Below are positions 6,586-25,812 of a DNA stretch of 32,000 nucleotides, piece after piece. The stretch lies in the NCBI GenBank assembly GCA_964640155.1, contig CAZXEQ010000001.1, positions 576,403 through 608,402 on the forward strand. Direction: 5' to 3'. This stretch comes from an uncultured bacterium. Lineage in GTDB: Bacteria; Auribacterota; JACPWU01. The notes under the pieces were generated by a model, which was not told the DNA's origin, made no database searches, and saw only the letters and a list, made by a program, of their open reading frames with translations. Each line of letters begins with the position of its first letter. Position 1 is the first letter of the stretch. The position numbers and the translations under genes are program-made.

Positions 6586-7605
6586 TCATCCTCCAATGCT
6601 TCGAATGTAAGGCGTTTCGTCTAAAGCAAGGGGAACGCCGCTTCCATCCTGAAAGGGCTGATCATAGAAGAATGGATTTCCCCTGGGTTTTATTTTCACA
6701 GCATACAAGACCGCCTTAATAATCTCTTCATCGGACTGATTTGCTTTCAATAATTCTCTCACAGAGACTTCCTCATGAGAAAAAAGGCAAGGACGAATTT
6801 TTCCATCGCTCGTCAGTCTTAGGCGAGAACAGTTATCACAAAAAGGTTCTGTCAATGATGCAATAAATCCTATCTTCCCTTTACCACCTTCAAGCCTAAA
6901 AGATTGGGCAACACTGTCTGCCCGTTCAAAATCTTGAATCAAAAAATATTTCTTAGCCACAAGCTGTCGGATTCTAGACATCGGGACAAAGAGGTCTGGC
7001 TTCCAGCGGGAACCGCAAAGCGGCATAAATTCCAAAAAACGAATCTCCAAAGGGTAATCAAAGGCCAGACTCGCAAATGGAAGGATTTCATGGTCATTAA
7101 AACCCTTCAACACCACCATATTGATTTTCAAGGGGAACCCTTCTTCAAAAGATGCAACAATGGACTGAAGAACTTTTTCATAACAATTCGTACGTGTGAC
7201 TTTGCGAAAACTGCCCACCTCTAAGCTGTCAAGGCTAATATTAATTCGATCGAGTCCAGACGCCTTGAGGGGTTTGACATACTCCAACAATCGGCTTGCG
7301 TTGGTCGTTAGAGAAAGATCACGGATCCCTTCAATTTTTTTGATATCCCTGACAATATCTAATAAATCATCTCTTAAAAGTGGTTCTCCTCCCGTAAGCC
7401 TGATCCGCTCAATACCAAGACGGCTCATGATTTCAACAAAGCGAACAATTTCATCTCGTGTGAGTGTTTCATGAGCTGGCAAAACGGGCAACCCCTCTTC
7501 AGGCATACAATAGACGCAGCGGAAATTACAGCGGTCTGTGAGGGAAATTCTGAGATAGTTGATGCGTCGACCAAAGGAGTCGACCAGTATATGAGTATAG
7601 ACCAT
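6586..7605 (-). CDS. moaA: GTP 3',8-cyclase MoaA (radical SAM)
   Basis: Radical-SAM CNFRCVYC motif near the N-terminus, a C-terminal second cluster region (CDNCSRLRLTSDGKIRPCLF), and a terminal GG. Confidence 0.92.
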   Translation of the reverse strand: MVYTHILVDSFGRRINYLRISLTDRCNFRCVYCMPEEGLPVLPAHETLTRDEIVRFVEIMSRLGIERIRLTGGEPLLRDDLLDIVRDIKKIEGIRDLSLTTNASRLLEYVKPLKASGLDRINISLDSLEVGSFRKVTRTNCYEKVLQSIVASFEEGFPLKINMVVLKGFNDHEILPFASLAFDYPLEIRFLEFMPLCGSRWKPDLFVPMSRIRQLVAKKYFLIQDFERADSVAQSFRLEGGKGKIGFIASLTEPFCDNCSRLRLTSDGKIRPCLFSHEEVSVRELLKANQSDEEIIKAVLYAVKIKPRGNPFFYDQPFQDGSGVPLALDETPYIRSIGG

Positions 7606-7611
7606 CTTTCC

Positions 7612-7738
7612 TTCTCCTTTTCAATTCACCCCCATGTTATGCCGGGGATCGGGAGGCGCTCGCGTTTCCGCTCAGGCACCTTCGGTCTGACTCCCATATC
7701 CTTATCTTCAAAAGAGACTTAGGAAATCAGACTCGGAG
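7612..7738 (-). ncRNA. Candidate Moco (molybdenum cofactor) riboswitch in the moaA leader
   Basis: The minus-strand RNA reads CUCCGAGUCUGA...(44 nt)...UCAGACCGAAGGUGCCUGAGCGGAAACGCGAGCGCCUCCCGAUCC...AAAAGGAGAAGGAAAG-AUG. It contains the CUCCGAG and GCCUCCC blocks I recall as hallmarks of the Moco RNA motif. It also has a GUCUGA/UCAGAC helix, a GCG-GAAA-CGC tetraloop hairpin, and a 5' CUCC able to pair with the GGAG of the moaA SD. It has not been verified by a covariance model. Confidence 0.55.
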
Positions 7739-7746
7739 AACATGCA

Positions 7747-7926
7747 CTATTTTTCTTTTTTTTCTTCGGACTTTACGTCCTTCTCAACGTCTCGAAGCCC
7801 TTTCTTAAGGGATCGAATTCCTTCGCCAATGGCACGAGCGAGTTCTGGAATTCTCTTTGGCCCAAACAAAATAAGCACAATCGCCAAAACAATGAGAATT
7901 TCTGTCCAACCCATCTTTCCGAACAT
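7747..7926 (-). CDS. tatA: Tat translocase subunit TatA/E (59 aa)
   Basis: ATG 7926 lies after AGGAGAGG. Translation: MFGKMGWTEILIVLAIVLILFGPKRIPELARAIGEGIRSLKKGLRDVEKDVKSEEKKEK, stop at 7747-7749. It shows the classic TatA architecture: one TM helix, an FGPKR(L/I)PEL hinge and an amphipathic helix. It is below the ORF-track cutoff. The listed plus-strand ORF 7742..7942 is its antisense shadow. Confidence 0.85.
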   Translation of the reverse strand: MFGKMGWTEILIVLAIVLILFGPKRIPELARAIGEGIRSLKKGLRDVEKDVKSEEKKEK

Positions 7927-7982: not shown

Positions 7983-7996
7983 ATGATCTATATCAT
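7983..7996. promoter_or_regulatory. FNR/CRP-family-like palindrome ATGAT-CTAT-ATCAT upstream of tatA
   Basis: A perfect 5-4-5 palindrome with a TGAT-N4-ATCA core (FNR consensus TTGAT-N4-ATCAA). Its centre lies 63.5 nt upstream of the tatA ATG. It matches the site at 16921-16934 at 13 of 14 positions. A -10-like TAGCAT follows 22 nt downstream on the minus strand. Confidence 0.45.
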
Positions 7997-8358
7997 AAAA
8001 ATTTATTTTCTGCTGCCTTGCGATCCACCATCCTAACAGCAGGAGTATCGTTCACTGTCCGGCAGGCGATTTCACACATCCCGCAACCGTCACAGATAGA
8101 GGGGACAATCATCGGTTTTAGGTCCTTCATTTCAATGGCTTCGTCACGACGCGGACAGGCAACATAACAAAGCTGACAATTCGATCCTGCCCAGGCCAGA
8201 CAACGGCTGACATCAATTCTGGCAATTTTGGGCATAAATTCTTCCGATTTTGCACTTTGAGAAAATTCATTTGTAACAGATCTCAATTCATTCAAGAAAA
8301 ACCGAGGGAAAGATTTAAAAAATTCCCTGCGACTCGTCAAAGAATCAGGCGATCTCAT
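7993..8358 (-). CDS. NapF-like 2x[4Fe-4S] ferredoxin with a vestigial twin-arginine motif
   Basis: It carries the Cys motifs C-x7-C-x2-C-x3-CP and C-x2-C-x2-C-x3-C. The N-terminus has SRREFFK, but the following segment is not hydrophobic (SFPRFFLNELRSVTNEF), so it is probably not exported. Its start overlaps the stop of the upstream 307-aa gene by 14 nt. Confidence 0.7.
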   Translation of the reverse strand: MRSPDSLTSRREFFKSFPRFFLNELRSVTNEFSQSAKSEEFMPKIARIDVSRCLAWAGSNCQLCYVACPRRDEAIEMKDLKPMIVPSICDGCGMCEIACRTVNDTPAVRMVDRKAAENKFL

Positions 8359-9268
8359 TTAAAAACCTCAGCCGGGATAAATATAGTTCAAAACATTGCC
8401 GGCAAATGCTGGAAGACGAAAGCCACTCAGGGTAGTCTTTTCTGATTTCATCCATGACCAAGGTCTTTTCTTCTAATGAATCCCAATTAAACTTGTCAAC
8501 ATAAGGAAATCCACACAACGAGCAGTGAAAACTCTCCCGTCGCCCCCCTTCCCCAGATTCAGCCTCTTTCGCAATCTGTATCAATTTACCTTGAGTTAAC
8601 AACCGACTGCTGAAAAGATCTTGAAATACGGTTTCTTGTTTTTCATCAATCCAGGAAGAAAAGGCTTTGCTAAAACTTAAAAAAAGTTCATCCTGAGTCA
8701 TATGAGAAAAGTGACCCGCCTTTATGATGCGCTTTGTAATATAGATATTCCACAAAAGGCGGAAACGATCGCGCGCAAGGTCATTTTCTACTTCACAAAA
8801 TCCTCCCAGATCAGCATCCGGAGAATATTGAAAAGAGGGATCCAGCATATCGGAGATATGATACAGTTCATAGCGCAAGAAGGACTCGAAAAGAAGAAGA
8901 TTTCCAAGCCCGTCAATCTGCAGGCCCAAAAGAACAGTCTTTAAATGCCCATCGACATAAAGTTGCGCCCCCTCTTCTTTTCGATTCCACACCCTCTTGA
9001 CAAATAGAAGAATGCCAGAATCATTCAAAAGATGGAATTCTGAAAGTACATTCTCAAAAATAAAACGCAATCCCAGCTTTGAGAAGAATTCTTCAAAGAA
9101 ACTCTGAAATCTCCGTTCTCTCTGGGGGCCTTGGAAATGTTCGTAGATTTGGATTCTTTGAAGGTGGAAAGAGTCCACAAAGGGCTGATCTCTTCTTTTC
9201 TCAAGAGAACGAATCCCAAAAAATACCGCTTCTTCAATGAAAGAAGGCTCAAACTTTAAATTCATCAT
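8345..9268 (-). CDS. Hypothetical protein (307 aa) with C-terminal CxxC-x36-CxxC zinc-ribbon-like motif
   Basis: A long ORF with no antisense competitor of comparable quality, translationally overlapped with the ferredoxin gene. I recognise no family. C-terminal region: HCSLCGFP...ICRQCFELY. Confidence 0.6.
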   Translation of the reverse strand: MMNLKFEPSFIEEAVFFGIRSLEKRRDQPFVDSFHLQRIQIYEHFQGPQRERRFQSFFEEFFSKLGLRFIFENVLSEFHLLNDSGILLFVKRVWNRKEEGAQLYVDGHLKTVLLGLQIDGLGNLLLFESFLRYELYHISDMLDPSFQYSPDADLGGFCEVENDLARDRFRLLWNIYITKRIIKAGHFSHMTQDELFLSFSKAFSSWIDEKQETVFQDLFSSRLLTQGKLIQIAKEAESGEGGRRESFHCSLCGFPYVDKFNWDSLEEKTLVMDEIRKDYPEWLSSSSICRQCFELYLSRLRFLNEIA

Positions 9269-9324: not shown

Positions 9325-9444
9325 GGCTGCTCAAAAAGAGCCAGATTCAAGGCGCGTGCAAACGACCGCGGAGGCGTACGTTTGATGGTACGCCTCACAA
9401 GGAAGCGCAGCGCGAAACGCAGAAGATGGCCTTTTTCAGCGGCC
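9325..9444. repeat. GC-rich ~120-nt palindromic intergenic element
   Basis: The outer imperfect arms are ggctgctcaaaaagagcc (9325-9342) and ggcctttttcagcggcc (9428-9444). The inner perfect 9-bp stem-loop is GAGGCGTAC-gtttgatg-GTACGCCTC (9371-9396). The right arm overlaps the last codons and stop of the chaperone gene. Confidence 0.55.
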
Positions 9445-10191
9445 TGTCAAACAAGAAACACAGCCCGTCTCCAGCTTCTCTTGTATTTTGCGAATGGGTA
9501 AATCTCTTGGACCAGGCTTCACGCCTGATTTTTCACAATCACTCAACGTAAAACAAAAAGCAAACTCAGCAATGGAATGCATCAATCCAATACCCGCAAA
9601 GTTGGAAAGACGAAGCGTAAGAGCGGGAAGCCACTGTCCCAGATGATTTTCTAGGAAGCTCTTTGCGGCCTCTCGACAAACAAAAGCCTTCTCTTCACCA
9701 TGATTCTCCAGCGTATACGCAGTCTTATAAAGAAGGTAATACATAAATTCGCACTCGCAAGAAACGTGATCTACTCTTTCGTGTGCAGCCTCAGCCACTT
9801 TCAAGCCAAAGGCTTGATAAAAAGCTGAAATATCGGAGAGTTCCTGAGGTTGACGATGACTATGTTCCTCCCCATATTCCAATTCATAGGCAGGGATTGT
9901 CCCACATACGGTATGACCAAAAGCTCTTTCGTAATGGTTAATCCATTCTTCGTCACTCGACCGATGAAGTTGTTCCAGCAGAGACTTCAGAATATTTCTT
10001 AACTCATCGGCCCGTGGAATACGCATAACGTCTAACCAGTGTTCCCAGGTCAAACCCGTTTCATTTACAAAATTCCGACCGAGGCCTGCCTTGGGATGTC
10101 TAAATAAAGAGGCTAGAAGCTGATAGAAAAAGCTCCTGCCTAAAAGCTCTTGAATATCAGATGGAGTTTTGGTGTCTGTCGGGCCGAACAT
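9436..10191 (-). CDS. TorD/NarJ-family redox-enzyme maturation chaperone (delta subunit)
   Basis: A soluble, helix-rich protein placed directly after the beta subunit, as in narGHJ/serABD. It has TorD-like FYQLLASLFRHP and AFYQAFGL segments. The start is placed at ATG 10191 (MFGPTDTK), overlapping the beta-subunit 3' end by 35 nt. The start position is uncertain. Confidence 0.7.
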   Translation of the reverse strand: MFGPTDTKTPSDIQELLGRSFFYQLLASLFRHPKAGLGRNFVNETGLTWEHWLDVMRIPRADELRNILKSLLEQLHRSSDEEWINHYERAFGHTVCGTIPAYELEYGEEHSHRQPQELSDISAFYQAFGLKVAEAAHERVDHVSCECEFMYYLLYKTAYTLENHGEEKAFVCREAAKSFLENHLGQWLPALTLRLSNFAGIGLMHSIAEFAFCFTLSDCEKSGVKPGPRDLPIRKIQEKLETGCVSCLTGR

Positions 10192-11395
10192 AGAATGGCT
10201 CCTCCACTTGAGTTCGAATGATTTCTTTTCCCTCTTGGTTAAAACCAATCACCGTGTCGTTATACATCGTGAACGGCTTCCCATGAATTTCAGTTTCATA
10301 AACCTTCGGGCCTTCTTCTATTTCATAGCTAAAAATAATCTTGTTCGTTTTTCTGAAGAGTTGAAGGACCGCCAAAAGTTCACGGTTAGGGACTTTGTAA
10401 GACTCTATCGCATGATCCACGCCCGGACCGAACATTTGGGTGAGATAGCTCCTAGGGACCCAACGCGGCGGGATATAGTAACCATTAGGCTGAGTCCCAA
10501 ATTGAGGATAAAGAGGAAGCGCCACCTTGGCAACCTTCACCAAATAATAAATCGGATTATAACGGTCTTCAACCCACTGGCCGTTTTCTCCCATTTTCAC
10601 AAGCCCTTGAAGCCTTATTTGACCAATGCAGGCCGCCATACAACGGGTTTCCATCGGCTGCCCTTCTGCTTCCGGATCCTTCCCTTCCAAGCGAGGAAAG
10701 CAGGCGATACATTTTTCTGTGACACGAGTGGTCGCTCGATACATAGCCTTTTTATAGGGACAGGCCTCTACGCACTTGCGATAACCCCGGCAGCGCTCTT
10801 GATCCACCAAGACGACACCGTCTTCTGGCCGCTTGTAAATGGCATTGCGCGGGCAGGCCGCCAGACACCCAGGATAGGTGCAATGGTTGCAGAGCCGGGC
10901 CAAATAAAAAAACCAAGTCTTGTGAACAGGTAGAGTTGCCCCTTCCGTATCGTAGGTGTCAGGCTTTCCTGGCTTTGAGACCGCTGTGTCTTCATACATG
11001 TTTGGAAATCGCCACTCCTCGTCTGTCGGTAGATAGCCCAGAACCCTCTGGGGCTCAGCTCCGATATTCTTTTGAGCGGCTTCAAAAATTGTTTTCCCGT
11101 CAAAAGTATCGCCTTTCCATTTCTGAGCGCCTGGGTTGGCCTGCTCCAATAAATTCAACAATTTGATATCCCAGAATTGGGGATAACCACCATAAGGTTT
11201 TGTCTCTACATTGGCCCACCACATGTATTCCTGCCCTTTGGAAAAGGTCCAGGTCGTCTTGCAAGCGAACGAGCAAGTTTGACAAGCAATGCAGCGGTTT
11301 AAATTAAATACGAAGGCAAACTGTCGCTGGGGATAGTGTCCCGCATGAGGATACTCCATCTTTCTATTTAATTGCCAGTTGAACACCTGACTCAT
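10157..11395 (-). CDS. nxrB: Type II DMSO-reductase-family Fe-S beta subunit (NarH/NxrB-like)
   Basis: Four ferredoxin-type Cys groups are present (CIACQTCSFACK, CNHCTYPGCLAACP, CRGYRKCVEACP, CIACFPR). It has no signal peptide, consistent with Tat hitch-hiking on the alpha subunit. The ATG overlaps the orf103 stop (ATGA). Confidence 0.9.
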   Translation of the reverse strand: MSQVFNWQLNRKMEYPHAGHYPQRQFAFVFNLNRCIACQTCSFACKTTWTFSKGQEYMWWANVETKPYGGYPQFWDIKLLNLLEQANPGAQKWKGDTFDGKTIFEAAQKNIGAEPQRVLGYLPTDEEWRFPNMYEDTAVSKPGKPDTYDTEGATLPVHKTWFFYLARLCNHCTYPGCLAACPRNAIYKRPEDGVVLVDQERCRGYRKCVEACPYKKAMYRATTRVTEKCIACFPRLEGKDPEAEGQPMETRCMAACIGQIRLQGLVKMGENGQWVEDRYNPIYYLVKVAKVALPLYPQFGTQPNGYYIPPRWVPRSYLTQMFGPGVDHAIESYKVPNRELLAVLQLFRKTNKIIFSYEIEEGPKVYETEIHGKPFTMYNDTVIGFNQEGKEIIRTQVEEPFYVRPDRHQNSI

Positions 11396-11703
11396 ACATT
11401 ATCTCCTTTTTCTCCGAAGAACGAATCAGCCGACGCTTTATGGCGAATAGGCTGCCAGATCCCTATTGCTTCTTTGATCACAGATAGCACAAATGAATCT
11501 CCCTTTTGACGCCACACAAGATGCGGCCCCAGATAAAAGGGATTTCTAAACATCGCCAGAAGCTTTTCCTCGTTCCAACCATCACGAGCAAATTCCTCCG
11601 CGTAACAAAGCACCATATCTCGAACTTCAGCTTCACTCTGGCCAGGCAACTCCACTCCAATCATTTCCATGGGATCTTCAGGATCAAATTCTTTTTTCAC
11701 CAT
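11392..11703 (-). CDS. Hypothetical 103-aa cytoplasmic-type protein inserted between the alpha and beta subunit genes
   Basis: The ATG sits inside the last alpha-subunit codons (AAATGGTGA), preceded by GGAGGAG. The stop overlaps the beta-subunit ATG. It has no signal peptide or TM segment and is acidic at the N-terminus. I recognise no family. Confidence 0.6.
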   Translation of the reverse strand: MVKKEFDPEDPMEMIGVELPGQSEAEVRDMVLCYAEEFARDGWNEEKLLAMFRNPFYLGPHLVWRQKGDSFVLSVIKEAIGIWQPIRHKASADSFFGEKGDNV

Positions 11704-14700
11704 TTCTCATTCTCCTCCCCGCCCATCGTTATAAACCCGCCGTCCAAGTACTTTTTCATAAATTCGTTTTCACTCGAGGGAGTAAAGCCCGTTGTCGCGG
11801 GCTTCCAAATTCCTTTCCCACCCATTCCACCGTCCTCGGCTTTCGTAATTCGAACCAGGGCCTCCTTGGGAACCGTGTTCACCGCGTGATTATCGGCTTC
11901 TCCTCCAAAAATAAATGAGAGGTTAACCTTGGCCTTGTGAAATAAGGTATCCGTCTGATGCATCGGCATATGCCAATTTCGTGTCACACTCTGCTGGGAT
12001 CCATAGCGAAAATTGGCTTGATAAGCACCCCCTTCAGAGAGCGCTCTTTTGTCGGCACGAGTCTCATGAGCCTTCACTGTTTTCTCCGTCGCAATATAAG
12101 TCCCATGTTTCATCATCACCGTGTGATAGGGAAAAGCCGGATTATACTTCACTCGCAGCATGAGCCGCGCCACTTTATAAAACGGGTCGCTGGGCTTTGC
12201 TCCGACATAGGGCCGATCGGCTGGATTAGCATCCACATAAACGTAATCCCCGTCATTGACACCAAGGTCCCTGGCCGCTTCAGGATTCAAATGAATTTGC
12301 TGTTCGCCGACACCAGGCGTACGCTTGTCCATACGATAAGGATCCCCAAAATTCGAATCCCAAATTTCATGCCAGTCCACATTGCTCCATAGGGAATGTA
12401 CCCTGTGACGGCTTTTGGGTGTAAGGCAATAAAACTTAAAGCCCCTCTCCCAAAGAAAATTCTTCGTTTCCTTTACATCTTCCCATGGAAGCTTGACGTT
12501 TCGTACCGTCCGGTTGTCCCAATGTTCTGCCGTTTCAGAAATGCCGTAGTCATTGGGACGAACATAGGGGTTTGAACTGACAATAACGTTTGGAAGAAAG
12601 GGCGTTGCTTCCGGCCCCTCTCGATGAACAATAAAGTTCTCCCCATATTCGATGGCCTCTGGAACATCCGTATAGGCATTCAAACGGCCTGTGTCGGTGA
12701 AGAAGGGCTGGTCTTCATGAATCTGTTCCCAAAAAGGAACTCTGGGGTATGTTCTAAAGAGCATCAGGGCACCGCCAGGGGGCCCATATTTTCCAGCCAT
12801 AATATCTTCAAGCTTGTATCCGGCCGTCGTTGTAGAGGAATCAAGAAGTCGTTGAATGTAAACTTCCCGCTGTCCCTCCAGTGCGAATTTCCAATAATCG
12901 TAGAATCGATGATCCTGCGTGATTTGGCCCAGTTTCTCGGCAATCCCAGCCAAAATCATAATATCGTCTCGACTGTCAAAGATGGGCTTAATCCCGCCTT
13001 TCCAAATCTGCAGAAAAGGGTTGGAGCAGGAAGCCGTTACCTCAAGACCCTCGAACTCCATCCAGCTATTGGCTGGGAGGGCAATATCGGCATATTCTAT
13101 GGAGGCCGTCATTTGAATATCAACGGAAACAATCATCTCCACATTTGGATTCACATTTTTAATCATGTCGTAGGCGTGCTTCGCGTTATTGATGAGATTG
13201 ACATTGGTAAAGATCATGGCCTTGGTAGGTGAGGGCATATGCGTCTGGCCCGTAAAGACCTTCCTTCCCTCACTGGGTGTGTCCACGATAAGAGGCCGAT
13301 CGCCGTGATTCCAATACGCGGGCTCCTCATCCTTGCAATACCCTTTAACATGCACATCTTTCCCAGGGGCATTAGGATCTAAAAGCGGATGAAACGGATC
13401 TTCGGCGACCCATCCTTTAAATCCATAACCCGTCCAAGGGGATCCTTGGAACAAAGCGGCCTTATAGTTTCCGGCCCACGTGTGGCAGCCCGCACCGGGT
13501 TTACCAATATTTCCCGTGAGCATCAGAGGCAAATAGGCCGCGCGGTTCATTTCAGTCGCATGAAACCAGTGATTGATTCCCTCTCCTTGATGGATGGCCG
13601 CTGGTTTAATCGTCGCAAGATCTTTGGCCAACTGTTCGATCAGATGTTTTGGCGCTTTCGTTATATCAGCGACACTGTCCAAATCGTAATCCTTCAGATG
13701 AATCTCATAAAGAGAAAAGAGTGTCATCACCTCCACTTCTTTTCCGTCAATCATCTGAACTTTGAATTTTCCCTGAAGGGCAGGTCTGATCCCTTTCTTG
13801 GCAAATTGCTCGCCAACATCGTCTCGGGTTAACGCGGCAGGTGCATTTCTTAATTCATCCCATACTACAAAATCCCCGAGTTTCTGATACTGCTCATCTT
13901 TCAACCCCTGATACTTGAAACTCGGACCCTCTTTTGAAAGGCCCAGAGCATAATCTTTGAAGATTTCATGCGCCCTCAAGCGCTTTAAATTGTCCGTACG
14001 CACAAGCAATGGAAAATCCGTGAACTTCTCGATAAAATCCCGATCATACCAGCCTCGATCGATCATAAGACGAGCAACTCCGAGAAAAAACGCAGCATCC
14101 GTCGCCGGGCGAATGGGAATCCAAGTGTCTGATTTCGTTGAAGGCGGGCTATATTCGGGGGTAATCGTCACAAGCTTTGCCCCACGCTCCATACACTCAA
14201 TAAACCAATGGCTGTCTGTAATTTTGTTTTCGACAAGATTTTTTCCCTGCTGAATAATCAGTTTACTGTTTCGAAGATCGTTGAAATCGCAATCAGAGGC
14301 CTGAAGGCCATGAACCCAGGGATGTCCAGGCGCCTGATCCCCATGCCAGGTATAATTGGACCAGATCCGGCCGGCTTTTGCGTCCTCTTCCTTCACGCCG
14401 CGCACATGCGTGTCAAGGATGGCCATCGTATTTGCCAGGCGATACATTCCATATTTTCCAAAAACGCCGAGAAGTCCCATCCCGCCACGAAATTTCATGG
14501 TTCTCATCCCAGATCCTTCCATTGGAGCAAGCATCTCTTCCGGATACCCTTGCTCAAGTAACTTCTTTTTTCCCTCTTCACCGCTGTAACGCTTTGAGAT
14601 GGCCATGAGACCTTTCGCAATATAGGTATTCGCTTCATCCCATGAGACTTTATCTAAAGTATCTGTTCCTCTGGAATCAAATTTGTATTTGGACTTACAC

Positions 14701-15161
14701 TCGGGTGTTAAGTCTGGAAAGCCGGCATCCGCCCATTCCTTCCAGCCTCGGCGAATAATGGGGTACTTAAGCCGATAAGGTCCGTACATCAATCGATGAA
14801 ATGTGAAGCCCTTTTCGCATTGACGCGGATTCCAATTGGGGGTCGCCTTGTTCCCGTAGAGATCCCCATAAGTCTCATAGTCATATTGCGACCCCAGGCG
14901 CACCACGATGCCGTTTCTAACAAAAGCCTTAGCTCGACATGCGTGGGTATCATTGGGAGAACAAACCCAGGAGAAAGCGCTATCGTAACGATATTGATCT
15001 CGATAAATTTTCTCCCAATCTCTGTTGGGATAATACTCTAGAGGATTCGTGATTTCTGGAATAACCTCAAGAGCCGAAAGCGAAAGATTTTTCAGTCCCA
15101 GGCTTAAGCCAATCGCCGCAGCGCCAGTTCTTTTGATAAATTGCCTTCTCGTGATTTCCAT
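11697..15161 (-). CDS. nxrA: Tat-exported molybdopterin catalytic alpha subunit, type II DMSO reductase family, periplasmic NXR (NxrA)/NarG-like
   Basis: It has the twin-arginine signal MEITRRQFIKRTGAAAIGLSLG. The FS0 motif is C67-x3-D71-x3-C75...C115 (WVCSPNDTHACRAKAFVRNG...NPRQCEKG), aligning with NarG H-x3-C-x3-C...C. YTWHGDQAPG aligns with the NarG Mo-ligand Asp segment (SWYSDLPP). At 1154 aa it is close to the size I recall for NxrA of Nitrospira and Kuenenia (about 1,150 aa). Confidence 0.9.
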   Translation of the reverse strand: MEITRRQFIKRTGAAAIGLSLGLKNLSLSALEVIPEITNPLEYYPNRDWEKIYRDQYRYDSAFSWVCSPNDTHACRAKAFVRNGIVVRLGSQYDYETYGDLYGNKATPNWNPRQCEKGFTFHRLMYGPYRLKYPIIRRGWKEWADAGFPDLTPECKSKYKFDSRGTDTLDKVSWDEANTYIAKGLMAISKRYSGEEGKKKLLEQGYPEEMLAPMEGSGMRTMKFRGGMGLLGVFGKYGMYRLANTMAILDTHVRGVKEEDAKAGRIWSNYTWHGDQAPGHPWVHGLQASDCDFNDLRNSKLIIQQGKNLVENKITDSHWFIECMERGAKLVTITPEYSPPSTKSDTWIPIRPATDAAFFLGVARLMIDRGWYDRDFIEKFTDFPLLVRTDNLKRLRAHEIFKDYALGLSKEGPSFKYQGLKDEQYQKLGDFVVWDELRNAPAALTRDDVGEQFAKKGIRPALQGKFKVQMIDGKEVEVMTLFSLYEIHLKDYDLDSVADITKAPKHLIEQLAKDLATIKPAAIHQGEGINHWFHATEMNRAAYLPLMLTGNIGKPGAGCHTWAGNYKAALFQGSPWTGYGFKGWVAEDPFHPLLDPNAPGKDVHVKGYCKDEEPAYWNHGDRPLIVDTPSEGRKVFTGQTHMPSPTKAMIFTNVNLINNAKHAYDMIKNVNPNVEMIVSVDIQMTASIEYADIALPANSWMEFEGLEVTASCSNPFLQIWKGGIKPIFDSRDDIMILAGIAEKLGQITQDHRFYDYWKFALEGQREVYIQRLLDSSTTTAGYKLEDIMAGKYGPPGGALMLFRTYPRVPFWEQIHEDQPFFTDTGRLNAYTDVPEAIEYGENFIVHREGPEATPFLPNVIVSSNPYVRPNDYGISETAEHWDNRTVRNVKLPWEDVKETKNFLWERGFKFYCLTPKSRHRVHSLWSNVDWHEIWDSNFGDPYRMDKRTPGVGEQQIHLNPEAARDLGVNDGDYVYVDANPADRPYVGAKPSDPFYKVARLMLRVKYNPAFPYHTVMMKHGTYIATEKTVKAHETRADKRALSEGGAYQANFRYGSQQSVTRNWHMPMHQTDTLFHKAKVNLSFIFGGEADNHAVNTVPKEALVRITKAEDGGMGGKGIWKPATTGFTPSSENEFMKKYLDGGFITMGGEENEKW

Positions 15162-15170
15162 TGCAAACTC

Positions 15171-16850
15171 CTATTGTTGAAGTTCCAAATCGTTCCATAT
15201 AGAAATCATCTTTTGACCATTTCGATCCTTTTTGGAACCGTCCCAAATCGCAAATGCAACATTTAAAGGAGTTCCAAGTTCAAATTGCAATCTTTCTTTT
15301 TCCTTGGTCTTCAGCTTTCTTTTGAATACCACTTGCCATGTCCCATCCCTCCAAATTCCATGAGCCTCGATGTTTTCAAACTGGGGTTTCATCGTTGTCA
15401 GAGTTCCCAGCCCCTTGGCGCGGGCTTCTTCAGCTGAAGATTTACTCAGGGGATTTGAAAGAGGATTTCCAGCGCCCCACCCCGTAATAAATTTGGGGTC
15501 ATGAAATTGAGTCTTAGAATCCTTTGTTTCAAACGGACTGCCATACTCATAGTTCTTTTGGGCCTCGTACCAATCCGTCGCAGTATTTGGGTATTGCATT
15601 TCAACATCTTTCCATTCCTTCATGTCTTCCTGCCGAGATGCCTTCCAATGCCAGATGGATACTGCACTTTGAGCACTCCCCATTCCAAAAAAAGGCGGAT
15701 CTTCTTCCGTAGAAAATTGAATGGCGGCCCCATCTGAAAAAGACTGCGGATTTAATGTCGAGATATCCTTAGTCCGATCTTTCCAACTTAAGCGAATCTC
15801 GATTTCTTCTTCATTATACGAGACGCTCACATCAACACCCTCAATCCTGTCGTCTCTCCACCATAATGGGGTTAAAGCAACAAAGGAAGGCTTTGCCGTT
15901 TTCCAGTAAGCCGCTTGAGGATTGAGATCCAGTTTCTCCTTTGTTTTTACAGCAATGATCGTCATCCGACGTATGATAGAACGCTCCTCGGCCCCTGGTT
16001 GCGGAAGGGTTTGCACAAAATGAATTAAATCCCAGATCTGATCTTCTTTAAGAGCTTTGGCGTAACTTGGCATGGGAGAGCCCGGTAAACCTGCAACGAT
16101 CCGATCATAAAGAGCGCTCGAATTTGATTCCCCTTTAAAAATGCCAGATGTAAGGTCTCTGGGTTTAGTGGGAAAGCCCAAACTGTCCTTCATCGTTTGC
16201 TGTCCATCTCCCTTACCTTCCTGGCCATGACAAGAAGCGCACGCCTTTACAAAAAGTTCTTTCCCCCGCTGAACACTCTGTGGATTGGCCGGAGATTCAT
16301 TCGGCACTTGAATCACAGTTTTGGGATCCACGGACGTCGTCAGCATTTTCTCGATTGTCTTCCAAGAAACCTCCTTCACATCCGGGGAAATCTCTCCCGT
16401 CTTCACGTGATTTTGATATTCTGCCAAATACCTCACGTAATAGACCAAGGCCCAGCGGTCTTGATCACTCAAGTGCTCCCAAGAAGGCATCGAAGAACCC
16501 GGCATTCCCCTCGTAATCGTCTTGAACAAGTCTTCGTTGGTTGCCTTCATTTGAGTTGTCGAGACCAAACGAAATTCATTTCGCGTAAAATCACGCGGTT
16601 TCGGATAAAGAAGATAAGAGGCTTGGCCCTCCCCCGCTCCTTTCTCCCCATGACAAACCGCGCATTGTTTTTCAAACAAGGCCTTACCCTTCATAAATGC
16701 TTCCCGTGTCGGAACGGGTTTTTCAACGAGAAATGTATCAGCGCTTCTTTCGGATTCTTGCGCAAAAACAAAAAGGGGGAAAGCCGTAAATAATAAGAAA
16801 ACGCAAAGGCAGGTCACTTGCACAAAAATTCTTTTGCGGCCTTGAATCAC
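15171..16850 (-). CDS. nxrC: Fused gamma subunit: Sec signal, two class-I c-type cytochrome domains, and a C-terminal EbdC/NxrC-like haem-b domain
   Basis: The signal peptide ends ...FPLFVFA-QE. Two CxxCH motifs (CAVCH, CASCH) each have a downstream Met-Pro motif (GSSMPSW, GSPMPSY). The C-terminal ~260 aa resemble the type II DMSOR haem-b gamma subunit (AAIQFS...FFGMGS...VSIWHWKA...NVAFAIWDGS). There is no C-terminal TM anchor. GTG start is preceded by AGAGGG. Confidence 0.8.
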   Translation of the reverse strand: MIQGRKRIFVQVTCLCVFLLFTAFPLFVFAQESERSADTFLVEKPVPTREAFMKGKALFEKQCAVCHGEKGAGEGQASYLLYPKPRDFTRNEFRLVSTTQMKATNEDLFKTITRGMPGSSMPSWEHLSDQDRWALVYYVRYLAEYQNHVKTGEISPDVKEVSWKTIEKMLTTSVDPKTVIQVPNESPANPQSVQRGKELFVKACASCHGQEGKGDGQQTMKDSLGFPTKPRDLTSGIFKGESNSSALYDRIVAGLPGSPMPSYAKALKEDQIWDLIHFVQTLPQPGAEERSIIRRMTIIAVKTKEKLDLNPQAAYWKTAKPSFVALTPLWWRDDRIEGVDVSVSYNEEEIEIRLSWKDRTKDISTLNPQSFSDGAAIQFSTEEDPPFFGMGSAQSAVSIWHWKASRQEDMKEWKDVEMQYPNTATDWYEAQKNYEYGSPFETKDSKTQFHDPKFITGWGAGNPLSNPLSKSSAEEARAKGLGTLTTMKPQFENIEAHGIWRDGTWQVVFKRKLKTKEKERLQFELGTPLNVAFAIWDGSKKDRNGQKMISIWNDLELQQ

Positions 16851-24071: not shown

Positions 24072-24395
24072 TCAAACCGTAAAAGAAGCTCCGCAACCAC
24101 AGCTTCCCTTAGCATTTGGATTCTGAAAATTAAAACCACCACCCATCATACCCTTGGTATAATCAAGTGTACTTCCATTCAAGAGAAAATAACTTTTCCC
24201 ATCAACATAAACTTTAATCCCACTTGCTTCAAAAATCTTATCTCCTTCCTTAGCTTGAGCTTCTAAGTCAATGGCATAGGAGTACCCAGAACAACCTCCT
24301 CCTTTGACAGAAAGCCTCAAACCTGACCCAGGCTTATTCTCTCTTTCAATCATCCGTTGAACTTCTTGAATCGCATTTTCTGTAAGCTGAATCAT
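24072..24395 (-). CDS. erpA: Iron-sulfur cluster insertion protein, IscA/ErpA/HesB family
   Basis: Contains GLRLSVKGGGCSGYSY and the C-terminal GSCGCGASF signature. The start was moved to ATG 24395 (MIQLTENA), 8 nt after GGAGG, where the track uses an upstream TTG. Confidence 0.88.
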   Translation of the reverse strand: MIQLTENAIQEVQRMIERENKPGSGLRLSVKGGGCSGYSYAIDLEAQAKEGDKIFEASGIKVYVDGKSYFLLNGSTLDYTKGMMGGGFNFQNPNAKGSCGCGASFTV

Positions 24396-24481
24396 ATACT
24401 TATCCTCCAATATCCGTATTATATCAAACTTTTACCCCTTGTGGAAGAACGACATGAAAGGAGCTTAACTATAATACTATA

Positions 24482-24615
24482 TATAGAAGTGTGTATTTTA
24501 TATATGCGGGTGATGCTCGGCGGGGAGCCCCATCGAGCACAACTTTTGATGAGCACGCTGGGGCTGACGAGCAGCAGGACCCGGTTCTTATCAAAAAGGA
24601 CACACTTTTATATAC
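24482..24615. repeat. Structured intergenic repeat, copy B
   Basis: Same plus-strand orientation as copy A. The closing helix is tatatagaagtgtgt (24480-24494) with acacacttttatata (24600-24614). The inner helix pairs tgctcg (24514-24519) with cgagca (24568-24573), a double compensatory change relative to copy A. It lies between the cysteine desulfurase stop (24622) and the iscA-like start. Confidence 0.75.
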
Positions 24616-24621
24616 AACATC

Positions 24622-25812
24622 TCAACTATGAGTCTGCCGCTTCATTTCATAGATAGGCGACATCGCCCTTAATCGTTTCACGGCCTCAACCACCTTTTGA
24701 AGGGTATATTCGATTTCTTCCTCCGTCGTAAAGCGACTTAAGCCAAAACGTAAAGAAGAGTGCAGTAAATTTTCAGGAACACCTAAAGCAGGCAGCACAT
24801 GAGAAGGTTCCAAATTAGCAGACATACAAGCAGATCCACTGGAAACTGCAACATCATCACGAATGGCCATCAATAAAGATTCTGCTTCTACATAAGCAAA
24901 ACTTATATTTAAATTATGCGAAAGTCTCTTTTCCAAATCTCCATGAACATATACTTCTTCTAATTGATCCATAAAACCTTTTCGCAATTTTTCTCTTAAG
25001 GCAAGAAGTCGCTTAGATTCTTCCATCATTAAGTTTTGTGACAATTCACAAGCCTTTCCAAATCCAACGATTCCAGGGACATTTAATGTACCTGATCTCA
25101 AACCTCGCTCATGGCCTCCGCCATCGATCAAAGTTGTTAATCTCACCCGTGGATTTTTCTCTCGAACGAAAAGAGCTCCTATCCCTTTAGGACCATACAT
25201 TTTATGAGCTGAAAAACTCATCAGATCAATGTTCATCTCTTCCACATTCATCAAAATTTTTCCAACAGCCTGAGCTGCATCGGTATGGAAAAGGATCCCT
25301 CTATTCTTAGCAATCCTGCCAATTTCTTTTATGGGATGTAGAACCCCGATCTCATTATTAGCAGCCATCAAACTGATCAAAATGGTCTTGGAGGTTATTG
25401 CCTTTTCAAGTCTTTCAAAATCAATAATTCCAGAATTCAATACAGGCAGATAAGTGATTTCAAATCCGGCTTGTTCAAGAGACTTACAAGAGTCTAAAAC
25501 AGCTTTATGTTCGGTTATACAAGTGATGATGTGATTTCCCTTTTCACAATACATCGCAGCGACACCCTTTAAGGCCAAATTATTTGATTCAGTAGCTCCA
25601 CTTGTAAAAATGATTTCTTTTTCCGAAGCCCCAATTAAAGAAGCAATTTGAATACGTGCTTTTTCTACCGCTTCTTCTGCTTGCCATCCGAAAGAATGAT
25701 TACGGCTTGCTGGATTTCCAAAACGCTCGCTAAAAAAAGGCAGCATGGCTTCCAACACCTGAGGGTCTACAGGTGTTGTTGCATGACTATCTAGATAAAT
25801 AGGAAGTTTCAT
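24622..25812 (-). CDS. Cysteine desulfurase, class I (NifS/IscS type)
   Basis: Contains the PLP-lysine motif [17 protein letters not shown] and the active-site loop SSGSACMS. At 396 aa it has the typical length. Confidence 0.9.

Follow-up and report, generated by a model that had tools for sequence, protein, structure and literature searches.

In the nitrate reductase (Nar) operon narGHJI, the helper protein NarJ is encoded among the structural genes. Among nitrite oxidoreductases (NXR), the Nitrobacter genes stand in the order nxrA-nxrX-nxrB, and NxrX (NorX), a peptidyl-prolyl isomerase homologue, is regarded as a folding helper (PMC4786786). The cluster of Nitrospina gracilis has been described as nxrABC (PMC3578206). 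Here we analyze gene X, which lies between the genes for the alpha (A, NxrA/NarG-like) and beta (B, NxrB/NarH-like) subunits of an NXR/Nar-type enzyme in a 32,000-nucleotide stretch from an uncultured bacterium of the Auribacterota (assembly GCA_964640155.1, contig CAZXEQ010000001.1, positions 576,403 to 608,402). This whole stretch is called the window below. Beside alpha, X and beta the cluster holds a gamma gene (G), a NarJ-like gene delta (D) and a conserved gene, U. The NXR cluster of Kuenenia (kustd1700-1704) shares alpha, beta, the NarJ-like D and U with the window, and it has the order C-B-D-U-A and no X. An earlier note on this DNA, made from the sequence alone, had taken A and B to be adjacent in canonical operons. 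This is broadly right, with Nitrobacter nxrA-nxrX-nxrB as an exception (PMC4786786).

Position and translation signals of gene X

The features of X and of its borders are as follows.

11392..11703, minus strand: gene X, encoding a 103-residue acidic protein of 11.8 kDa, isoelectric point 4.8 (open reading frame and translation).
11697..11703, minus strand: start overlap ATGGTGA, 7 nt shared by X with the last alpha codons and stop.
11712..11718 (read 11718-11712), minus strand: Shine-Dalgarno (SD) sequence GGAGGAG of X, 8 nt before the X ATG and within the alpha 3' end.
11392..11395, minus strand: ATGA overlap of the X stop and the beta start, read from the sequence.
11643..11703, minus strand: N-terminal motif of X, codons 1-20, M-x4-(D)P-x-DP-x2-(L/M)(V/I)G(V)-x-LP, from conservation over 103 sequences.

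The 103-residue open reading frame (ORF) reported earlier at 11392-11703 was confirmed and its quoted translation matches; it lies on the minus strand, which the earlier note had left unstated. Both borders proved to be as that note had described them, with the X start in the last alpha codons behind GGAGGAG and the X stop overlapping the beta ATG. It can be seen that, first, the alpha gene ends on the minus strand as ...GAG AAA TGG TGA, so that the X ATG (11703-11701) lies inside AAATGG and the alpha stop occupies 11699-11697. Secondly, X ends as GTA TGA (stop at 11394-11392), and the beta ATG is at 11395-11393. The beta gene is served by the SD sequence AGGAG at 11407-11403.

The duplex of the X SD with the anti-SD sequence was calculated at -11.0 kcal/mol, the strongest within the window's operon. 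Median SD duplex energies were -6.9 kcal/mol for X, -7.7 for alpha, -9.1 for beta and -5.6 for U. Among relatives the median gap from alpha to X is about 13 nt, with several overlaps, and of 82 related loci, 36 have X and beta overlapping by 1-17 nt. A terminator scan of the coding strand around X gave no terminator-like site. With small or overlapping gaps on both sides, in the window as in its relatives, X is tightly coupled in translation to alpha and beta, and the proposal that the three are read as one coupled unit is borne out. The overlaps, together with an SD strength similar to that of alpha and beta, suggest that X may be synthesized stoichiometrically with the two subunits.

The maximal Kyte-Doolittle mean over 19 residues is 0.82 and the N-terminus is acidic. 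X therefore has neither a transmembrane helix nor a signal peptide, in agreement with the earlier note.

X as a conserved protein family

A word-seeded search gave 18 homologues of X at 37-84% identity. When a profile was used, 562 clusters at 50% identity were recovered at E <= 1e-3, 300 of them at E <= 1e-10, and the 90%-identity database yielded 1,103 clusters. The family names given by the sources are all 'hypothetical protein', and none of the 1,103 clusters carries a Pfam domain. Searches of Pfam, NCBIfam and PDB sequences with the single X and with a 53-sequence profile gave no match, and when X and 53 family members were run against all of Pfam-A, nothing appeared at E up to 1; the earlier note, too, had recognized no motif in the protein. 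No description of X was found in the searchable literature, which is only part of the whole.

The start residue M1 is conserved, and the family consensus begins MP..(D)P.DP at residue 1. Across 103 X sequences ten columns show no variation (D10, P11, G16, A35, E37, G42, F52, Y57, G59 and G68), and the family signature reads D10-P11, G16, A35-E-E-F-A-R, G42, F52, P55-x-Y57-x-G59, G68 and W83. The X of the window has every invariant or near-invariant residue of this alignment, and its profile score is 130 bits (E = 2e-38). The ratio of nonsynonymous to synonymous substitution rates (dN/dS) was 0.07-0.45 for pairs of X sequences with unsaturated dS, similar to gamma and mostly below D and U. At equal divergence the identity is 41-48% for X versus 32-40% for D and 28-32% for U, and X is about as conserved as gamma.

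The genomic context of X was followed in both directions. In the forward test beta was used as the query with one genome per species, a design that is unbiased for X. At least 593 species genomes contained a beta relative. More than 15 phylum-level groups are represented among the best 80 loci; three of these 80 are cut at a contig edge, which leaves 77 evaluable. In 72 of the 77 species genomes X stands directly after alpha (X profile, E <= 1e-20). In the reverse test, in which X was the query against JGI metagenomes, 67 of 80 loci have the order A-X-B, and a further 11 are truncated by contig ends; the remaining ones are one with merely 225 nt upstream of X and one with an ORF on the opposite strand upstream. 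No X outside the alpha/beta context was seen among these 80 metagenome loci. The first seven contexts collected, from Omnitrophota, a metagenome-assembled genome labelled 'Chlamydiae', Planctomycetota, Methylomirabilota and unbinned metagenomes, are all gamma-alpha-X-beta-delta-U. A Dehalococcoidia locus (L052, 6001-12727) has the order B-D-A-X-G, so that X stays with alpha even where beta lies elsewhere. X is found almost nowhere but directly after alpha.

These data bear on the simplest alternative, that X is a frame open by chance or the remnant of a decaying gene, with an alpha-beta spacer that in effect encodes nothing. Many spurious ORFs of at least 60 codons do occur in the window, and a few related clusters (L070, L085, L060) have alpha and beta adjacent with no X. 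Against this stand a dN/dS of 0.07-0.45, ten invariant columns in 103 sequences, a conserved start codon and SD, more than 1,100 homologue clusters and a confidently predicted fold, and the alternative is refuted by the conservation data with next to no probability left to it. The earlier note had tied the gene's standing to three matters, namely conservation of the ORF in related clusters, selection at the codon level and the coding content of the homologous spacers. All three came out in favor of X: X has 18 close homologues and more than 1,100 distant ones, with start and position kept in 72 of the 77 evaluable loci; dN/dS is well under 1; and a bare spacer, or none, is found in only 5 of the 77 related clusters. 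X is a real gene under purifying selection.

Several loci with unusual arrangements were noted along the way. In L179 a 408-residue ORF, transposase-like by eye, lies on the opposite strand (40-1266, minus) directly upstream of X, at the place expected for alpha. The loci closest to L052, namely L072 and L086, have the order B-D-U-A-G and no X; in this small group X and U stand in for one another around alpha. A Methylomirabilota contig (L007, 11461-16324) carries, directly after the first cluster, a second alpha-beta-gamma set with no X; its alpha is 42% identical to the window alpha, and a gene for a Rieske protein lies between its gamma and alpha. An apparent alpha-X fusion in L061 (a stop-free frame of 1,450 codons) was rejected as an artefact, the alpha gene being in another frame and the two genes overlapping by 4 nt.

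The five forward-test loci with no X fall into two arrangements: alpha and beta are adjacent in L070, L085 and L060, and the order is B-D-U-A in L072 and L086. In the Kuenenia and Brocadia loci (C-B-D-U-A) no X was found within 8 kb on either side with filters off and E <= 10, nor was one found in L098, a third locus of this order. The earlier note had raised the possibility that small ORFs between nxrA and nxrB of anammox bacteria are homologous to X. This did not hold: the ORFs there are kustd1702, the NarJ-like D, and kustd1701, which is U, an unrelated protein of 322 residues that differs from X, and with the gene order C-B-D-U-A both were rejected as X homologues. The two genes are transcribed, yet their products went undetected in the proteome (PMC6423088). 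In a neighbor-joining tree of beta, the loci with no X, which make up four or five lineages besides Kuenenia and Brocadia, are interspersed near the base with loci that have it, and a large crown group always has X; several losses or gains of X therefore have to be assumed. A docking-site signature was sought in alpha and beta, and no column or indel of either was found to follow the presence of X. X is dispensable in some lineages.

The AlphaFold model of X, built on the 103-sequence alignment, has a predicted local distance difference test score (pLDDT) of 89-97 over residues 21-80, with helices at 24-39, 45-53 and 58-83. Residues 1-20 have no predicted secondary structure (pLDDT about 60), yet D10, P11 and G16 within them are invariant. 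The conserved core comprises about residues 1-87; the tail, 88-103, is variable, predicted to be disordered and tolerant of extensions. In the model, a conserved unstructured N-terminal peptide is thus joined to a small acidic domain, a layout that would be typical of partner binding. No column of conserved Cys or His exists in X (the core has 0-3 Cys, variably placed), and a cofactor site is therefore not expected. Foldseek searches of the PDB with two models (from 18- and 103-sequence alignments) gave at best E = 2.5 and a template modelling score below 0.45. X as a split-off or duplicated piece of a neighboring gene was considered and dropped, since in hhalign comparisons none of the A, B, D, G and U alignments exceeded a probability of 0.2%.

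Possible roles of X in the cluster

The reading that we tentatively prefer is that X may be a cytoplasmic assembly or escort factor for NxrA/NxrB, acting before export by the twin-arginine translocation (Tat) pathway. X would be translated immediately after NxrA from the same mRNA and, in the cytoplasm, would bind either the new apo-NxrA or the precursor of NxrA with NxrB, by means of the invariant, intrinsically unstructured N-terminal motif (DP...G-V-x-LP) and the compact acidic helical domain. X would then hold or protect the precursor during loading of the molybdenum bis-pyranopterin guanine dinucleotide (Mo-bisPGD) and iron-sulfur (Fe-S) cofactors by the NarJ-like D and U, and would be let go no later than the step of Tat export. 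This module may also recruit a hemerythrin domain in some lineages. The binding partner, the cytoplasmic site of action, the release step and the stoichiometry are all what we infer for X.

That X always follows alpha, and is tightly coupled to it, suggests that it meets the new alpha or the alpha-beta pair. Position and coupling, the missing export signal, the lack of cofactor ligands and the disordered but conserved N-terminus are all consistent with an assembly factor. The dispensability of X, the hemerythrin link, which points to the cytoplasm, and the precedents of embedded helpers (NarJ, NxrX) speak in the same direction.

Several points weigh against an assembly role. With a NarJ-type chaperone and U already in the cluster, the need for a third helper is not obvious. 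In conservation X exceeds D and U and is about equal to gamma, and its dN/dS is gamma-like as well. Its SD matches those of alpha and beta and exceeds that of U, which together with the stop/start overlaps suggests subunit-like amounts. A missing signal peptide is compatible with export, as NxrB has none either and is thought to hitchhike (PMC3578206). In the mirror-tree comparison of distance matrices, a weak test, the partial correlations with X were 0.38 for B, 0.32 for D, 0.12 for G and -0.01 for A, and thus point weakly to beta and D, not alpha.

The same observations bear on the main rival reading, in which X would be a small fourth structural subunit that would bind the folded NxrA/NxrB in the cytoplasm, hitchhike with them through Tat as has been proposed for NxrB, and stay on the mature periplasmic enzyme, where it could stabilize the enzyme or tune its partners. 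We regard this as possible, if doubtful. Overlaps on both sides with an SD as strong as those of the structural genes, gamma-like conservation and dN/dS better than those of the chaperone D, the confident compact predicted fold, the near-universal presence of X in the large crown group of clusters, and the weak but highest partial correlation, with beta, all speak for a subunit. On the other side, several lineages have no X and no visible compensating change in alpha or beta. The structure of Kuenenia NXR has been solved, and an X-like component was not found in our searches, in which the entry matched A and B only; more generally, Foldseek gave no counterpart of X in any solved complex of the dimethyl sulfoxide (DMSO) reductase family. 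Cofactor ligands of the subunit type (Cys clusters, haem ligands or an Mo ligand) are not conserved in X, and both the hemerythrin fusion described below and the neighboring hemerythrins with no signal peptide are easier to place in the cytoplasm. A stronger form of this idea, which we consider rather unlikely, is that X is a true fourth subunit of a widespread, biochemically unstudied periplasmic NXR/nitrate reductase clade, in which the anammox and Nitrospina enzymes would be the X-less exceptions. If so, X could affect stability, partner choice or the handling of O2 and NO, and hence the direction of the enzyme in nature. The earlier note had offered an assembly or proofreading factor and a previously unnoticed subunit as alternatives. 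As a pair these fit the data well, and the evidence does not decide between them.

A third view of X comes from hemerythrins. A 1260-nt Logan contig of ERR10503172 (L095) encodes, at 196-1128, a 310-residue fusion of an X domain to a hemerythrin domain (PF01814), flanked by the alpha C-terminus and the beta N-terminus. Roughly 10 related loci have hemerythrin-like ORFs no more than about 6 kb away. Stand-alone hemerythrin genes stand upstream of gamma in L002 and L005, and neither product has a signal peptide, which points to the cytoplasm. X might accordingly be an adaptor or regulatory module by which proteins for sensing or repair, for instance O2/NO-binding domains of the hemerythrin type or domains for Fe-S repair, are docked onto the enzyme or onto its precursor, assembly itself being independent of X. 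The fusion exactly between alpha and beta, the hemerythrin ORFs near related loci and a variable C-terminal tail that accepts extensions agree with such a module. However, a single fusion was seen, on a contig of 1.26 kb, most loci, the window included, have no hemerythrin nearby, and X is strongly conserved across phyla whether or not a hemerythrin is present. We consider this view improbable, and retain the cytoplasmic assembly factor as our provisional reading.

The enzyme cluster and its described relatives

The genes and elements around X are listed here in the order in which they are discussed.

11697..15161, minus strand: alpha, NxrA/NarG-like, 1154 residues (PF00384), with Tat signal MEITRRQFIK (TIGR01409).
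10157..11395, minus strand: beta, NxrB/NarH-like, 412 residues, Fe-S clusters (Fer4_11, TIGR03478), no signal peptide.
15171..16850, minus strand: gamma, a dihaem cytochrome c fused to an EB_dh (haem b) domain (PF00034 twice, PF09459).
9436..10248, minus strand: delta (D), a NarJ/TorD-family chaperone (PF02613, TIGR03482); its start is uncertain, as the listed TTG overlaps beta.
8345..9268, minus strand: U, a conserved protein of 307 residues with a C-terminal CxxC...CxxC, homologue of Kuenenia kustd1701.
7993..8358, minus strand: ferredoxin-like protein of 121 residues (Fer4 families) with the twin-arginine motif SRREFFK.
7747..7926, minus strand: TatA/E-like protein of 59 residues at the end of the cluster, assigned from its sequence.
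7598-7750, minus strand: molybdenum cofactor (Moco) riboswitch RF01055 (50.2 bits), directly upstream of moaA (6586-7605).

Alpha matches Kuenenia stuttgartiensis NxrA (PDB 7B04, chain 7B04_B) over its whole length with 1842 bits and is 65% identical to the Kuenenia locus. Beta matches Kuenenia NxrB (7B04_A) over its full length with 608 bits, at 62% identity to that locus. On the strength of the alpha Tat signal and these matches, the enzyme is a Tat-exported periplasmic one of the NXR/Nar type, like the NXR of Nitrospira, Nitrospina and anammox bacteria. Its direction, that of oxidizing nitrite or of reducing nitrate, is not readable from the sequence.

The gamma gene lies upstream of alpha. 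The Kuenenia cluster has a plain EB_dh NxrC plus a separate fused (cytochrome c-EB_dh) paralogue, to be compared with the fused gamma of the window. U gave no match in Pfam or NCBIfam and is kept after delta in most loci, Kuenenia included, where kustd1701 goes by the name 'unknown protein'; it is a second uncharacterized component of NXR-like clusters. At the position equivalent to the window's TatA/E-like gene, a PF02416 gene is present in L001 and L002, and the operon seems to be equipped with a Tat component of its own. Downstream of the riboswitch and moaA follow a moaC-moaB fusion, a gene of the TauE family, moeA, moaE and mobA, so that the set for molybdenum cofactor biosynthesis attached to the cluster is complete. 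At a distance of about 8 kb (24072-25812, minus strand) there are two possibly unrelated housekeeping genes, one for Fe-S assembly of the IscA/HesB type (PF01521) and one that is cysteine desulfurase-like (PF00266).

In metagenomes from many phyla, among them Omnitrophota, Planctomycetota, Acidobacteriota, Verrucomicrobiota, Methylomirabilota and Chloroflexota, the enzymes of this clade serve as the basis for inferring that nitrite is oxidized or nitrate reduced. In searches of solved structures with alpha and beta, Kuenenia NXR was the sole close relative, and its locus has no X. About 90% of the environmental clusters have X as a conserved extra component, and their enzymes may accordingly differ from the Kuenenia model in assembly or in build. 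X changes the annotation of many environmental 'NXR-like' clusters and overturns nothing; it is a clean marker for this operon type, and the family deserves a name. The function of X can be tested in a cultured host, the thermophilic Verrucomicrobium Limisphaera sp. VF-2 (L055, NZ_JBMVQY010000004.1), which has the same full G-A-X-B-D-U cluster. This strain, which appears as Limisphaera sibirica VF2 in its describing paper, respires nitrate, and its cluster has been termed there a distant NarGHI homologue confined to nitrate-respiring strains (PMC13608581).

X was compared with the small proteins that serve related enzymes. Its counterpart was sought in the solved NXR, Nar, Ebd and Pcr complexes (among PDB entries 1Q16, 2IVF, 4YDD and 7B04), and no PDB sequence or fold match was obtained. 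DAMO_0777 of M. oxyfera was considered as a possible X and dropped, the Nar of that organism being of the Nitrobacter type (PMC6094997).

Other small proteins offer likenesses of role. NapD is a small cytoplasmic chaperone of about 90 residues with a ferredoxin-like alpha/beta fold that binds the Tat signal of the periplasmic nitrate reductase. Like X it is a small protein dedicated to one Tat-exported molybdoenzyme; unlike NapD, X is predicted to be all-helical. FdsD of the NAD-dependent Mo-containing formate dehydrogenase, McrD and NifY are likewise small, encoded among structural genes and bound to the catalytic subunit, with links to cofactor insertion or stability. The likeness of X to these three is an analogy of role only, since the enzyme systems differ and no similarity of sequence, profile or fold was detected. 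X and 53 relatives had no Pfam-A match to NapD (PF03927) or FdsD (PF11390), and X had no match to NapD in sequence or structure.

The chaperones NarJ, TorD and DmsD (PF02613) come closer. As with X, their genes belong to operons of the DMSO reductase family, and the proteins are all-helical, free of cofactor and, as X would be, cytoplasmic; their target is the catalytic subunit, prior to its assembly or export by Tat, which is the role proposed for X. X differs in being about one third of their size, with a helical core of about 60 residues versus about 200 for the TorD-like fold, and a PF02613 chaperone, D, is already present in its cluster, apart from X. No match to PF02613 or TIGR03482 was found with X and 53 family members at E up to 1, hhalign of X with the alignment of the cluster's own NarJ-like D gave a probability of 0.2%, and Foldseek gave no match to the TorD, DmsD or NarJ structures in the PDB.

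In gene position the nearest parallel is NxrX. The X protein has no peptidyl-prolyl isomerase domain, nor any other Pfam domain, and the NXR of Nitrobacter faces the cytoplasm, whereas the enzyme of X is predicted to be exported by Tat. Both genes are placed between alpha and beta in an operon of the nitrite oxidoreductase type. X is thus a new, widespread and unnamed protein family in a familiar category, the accessory proteins of molybdoenzyme operons.

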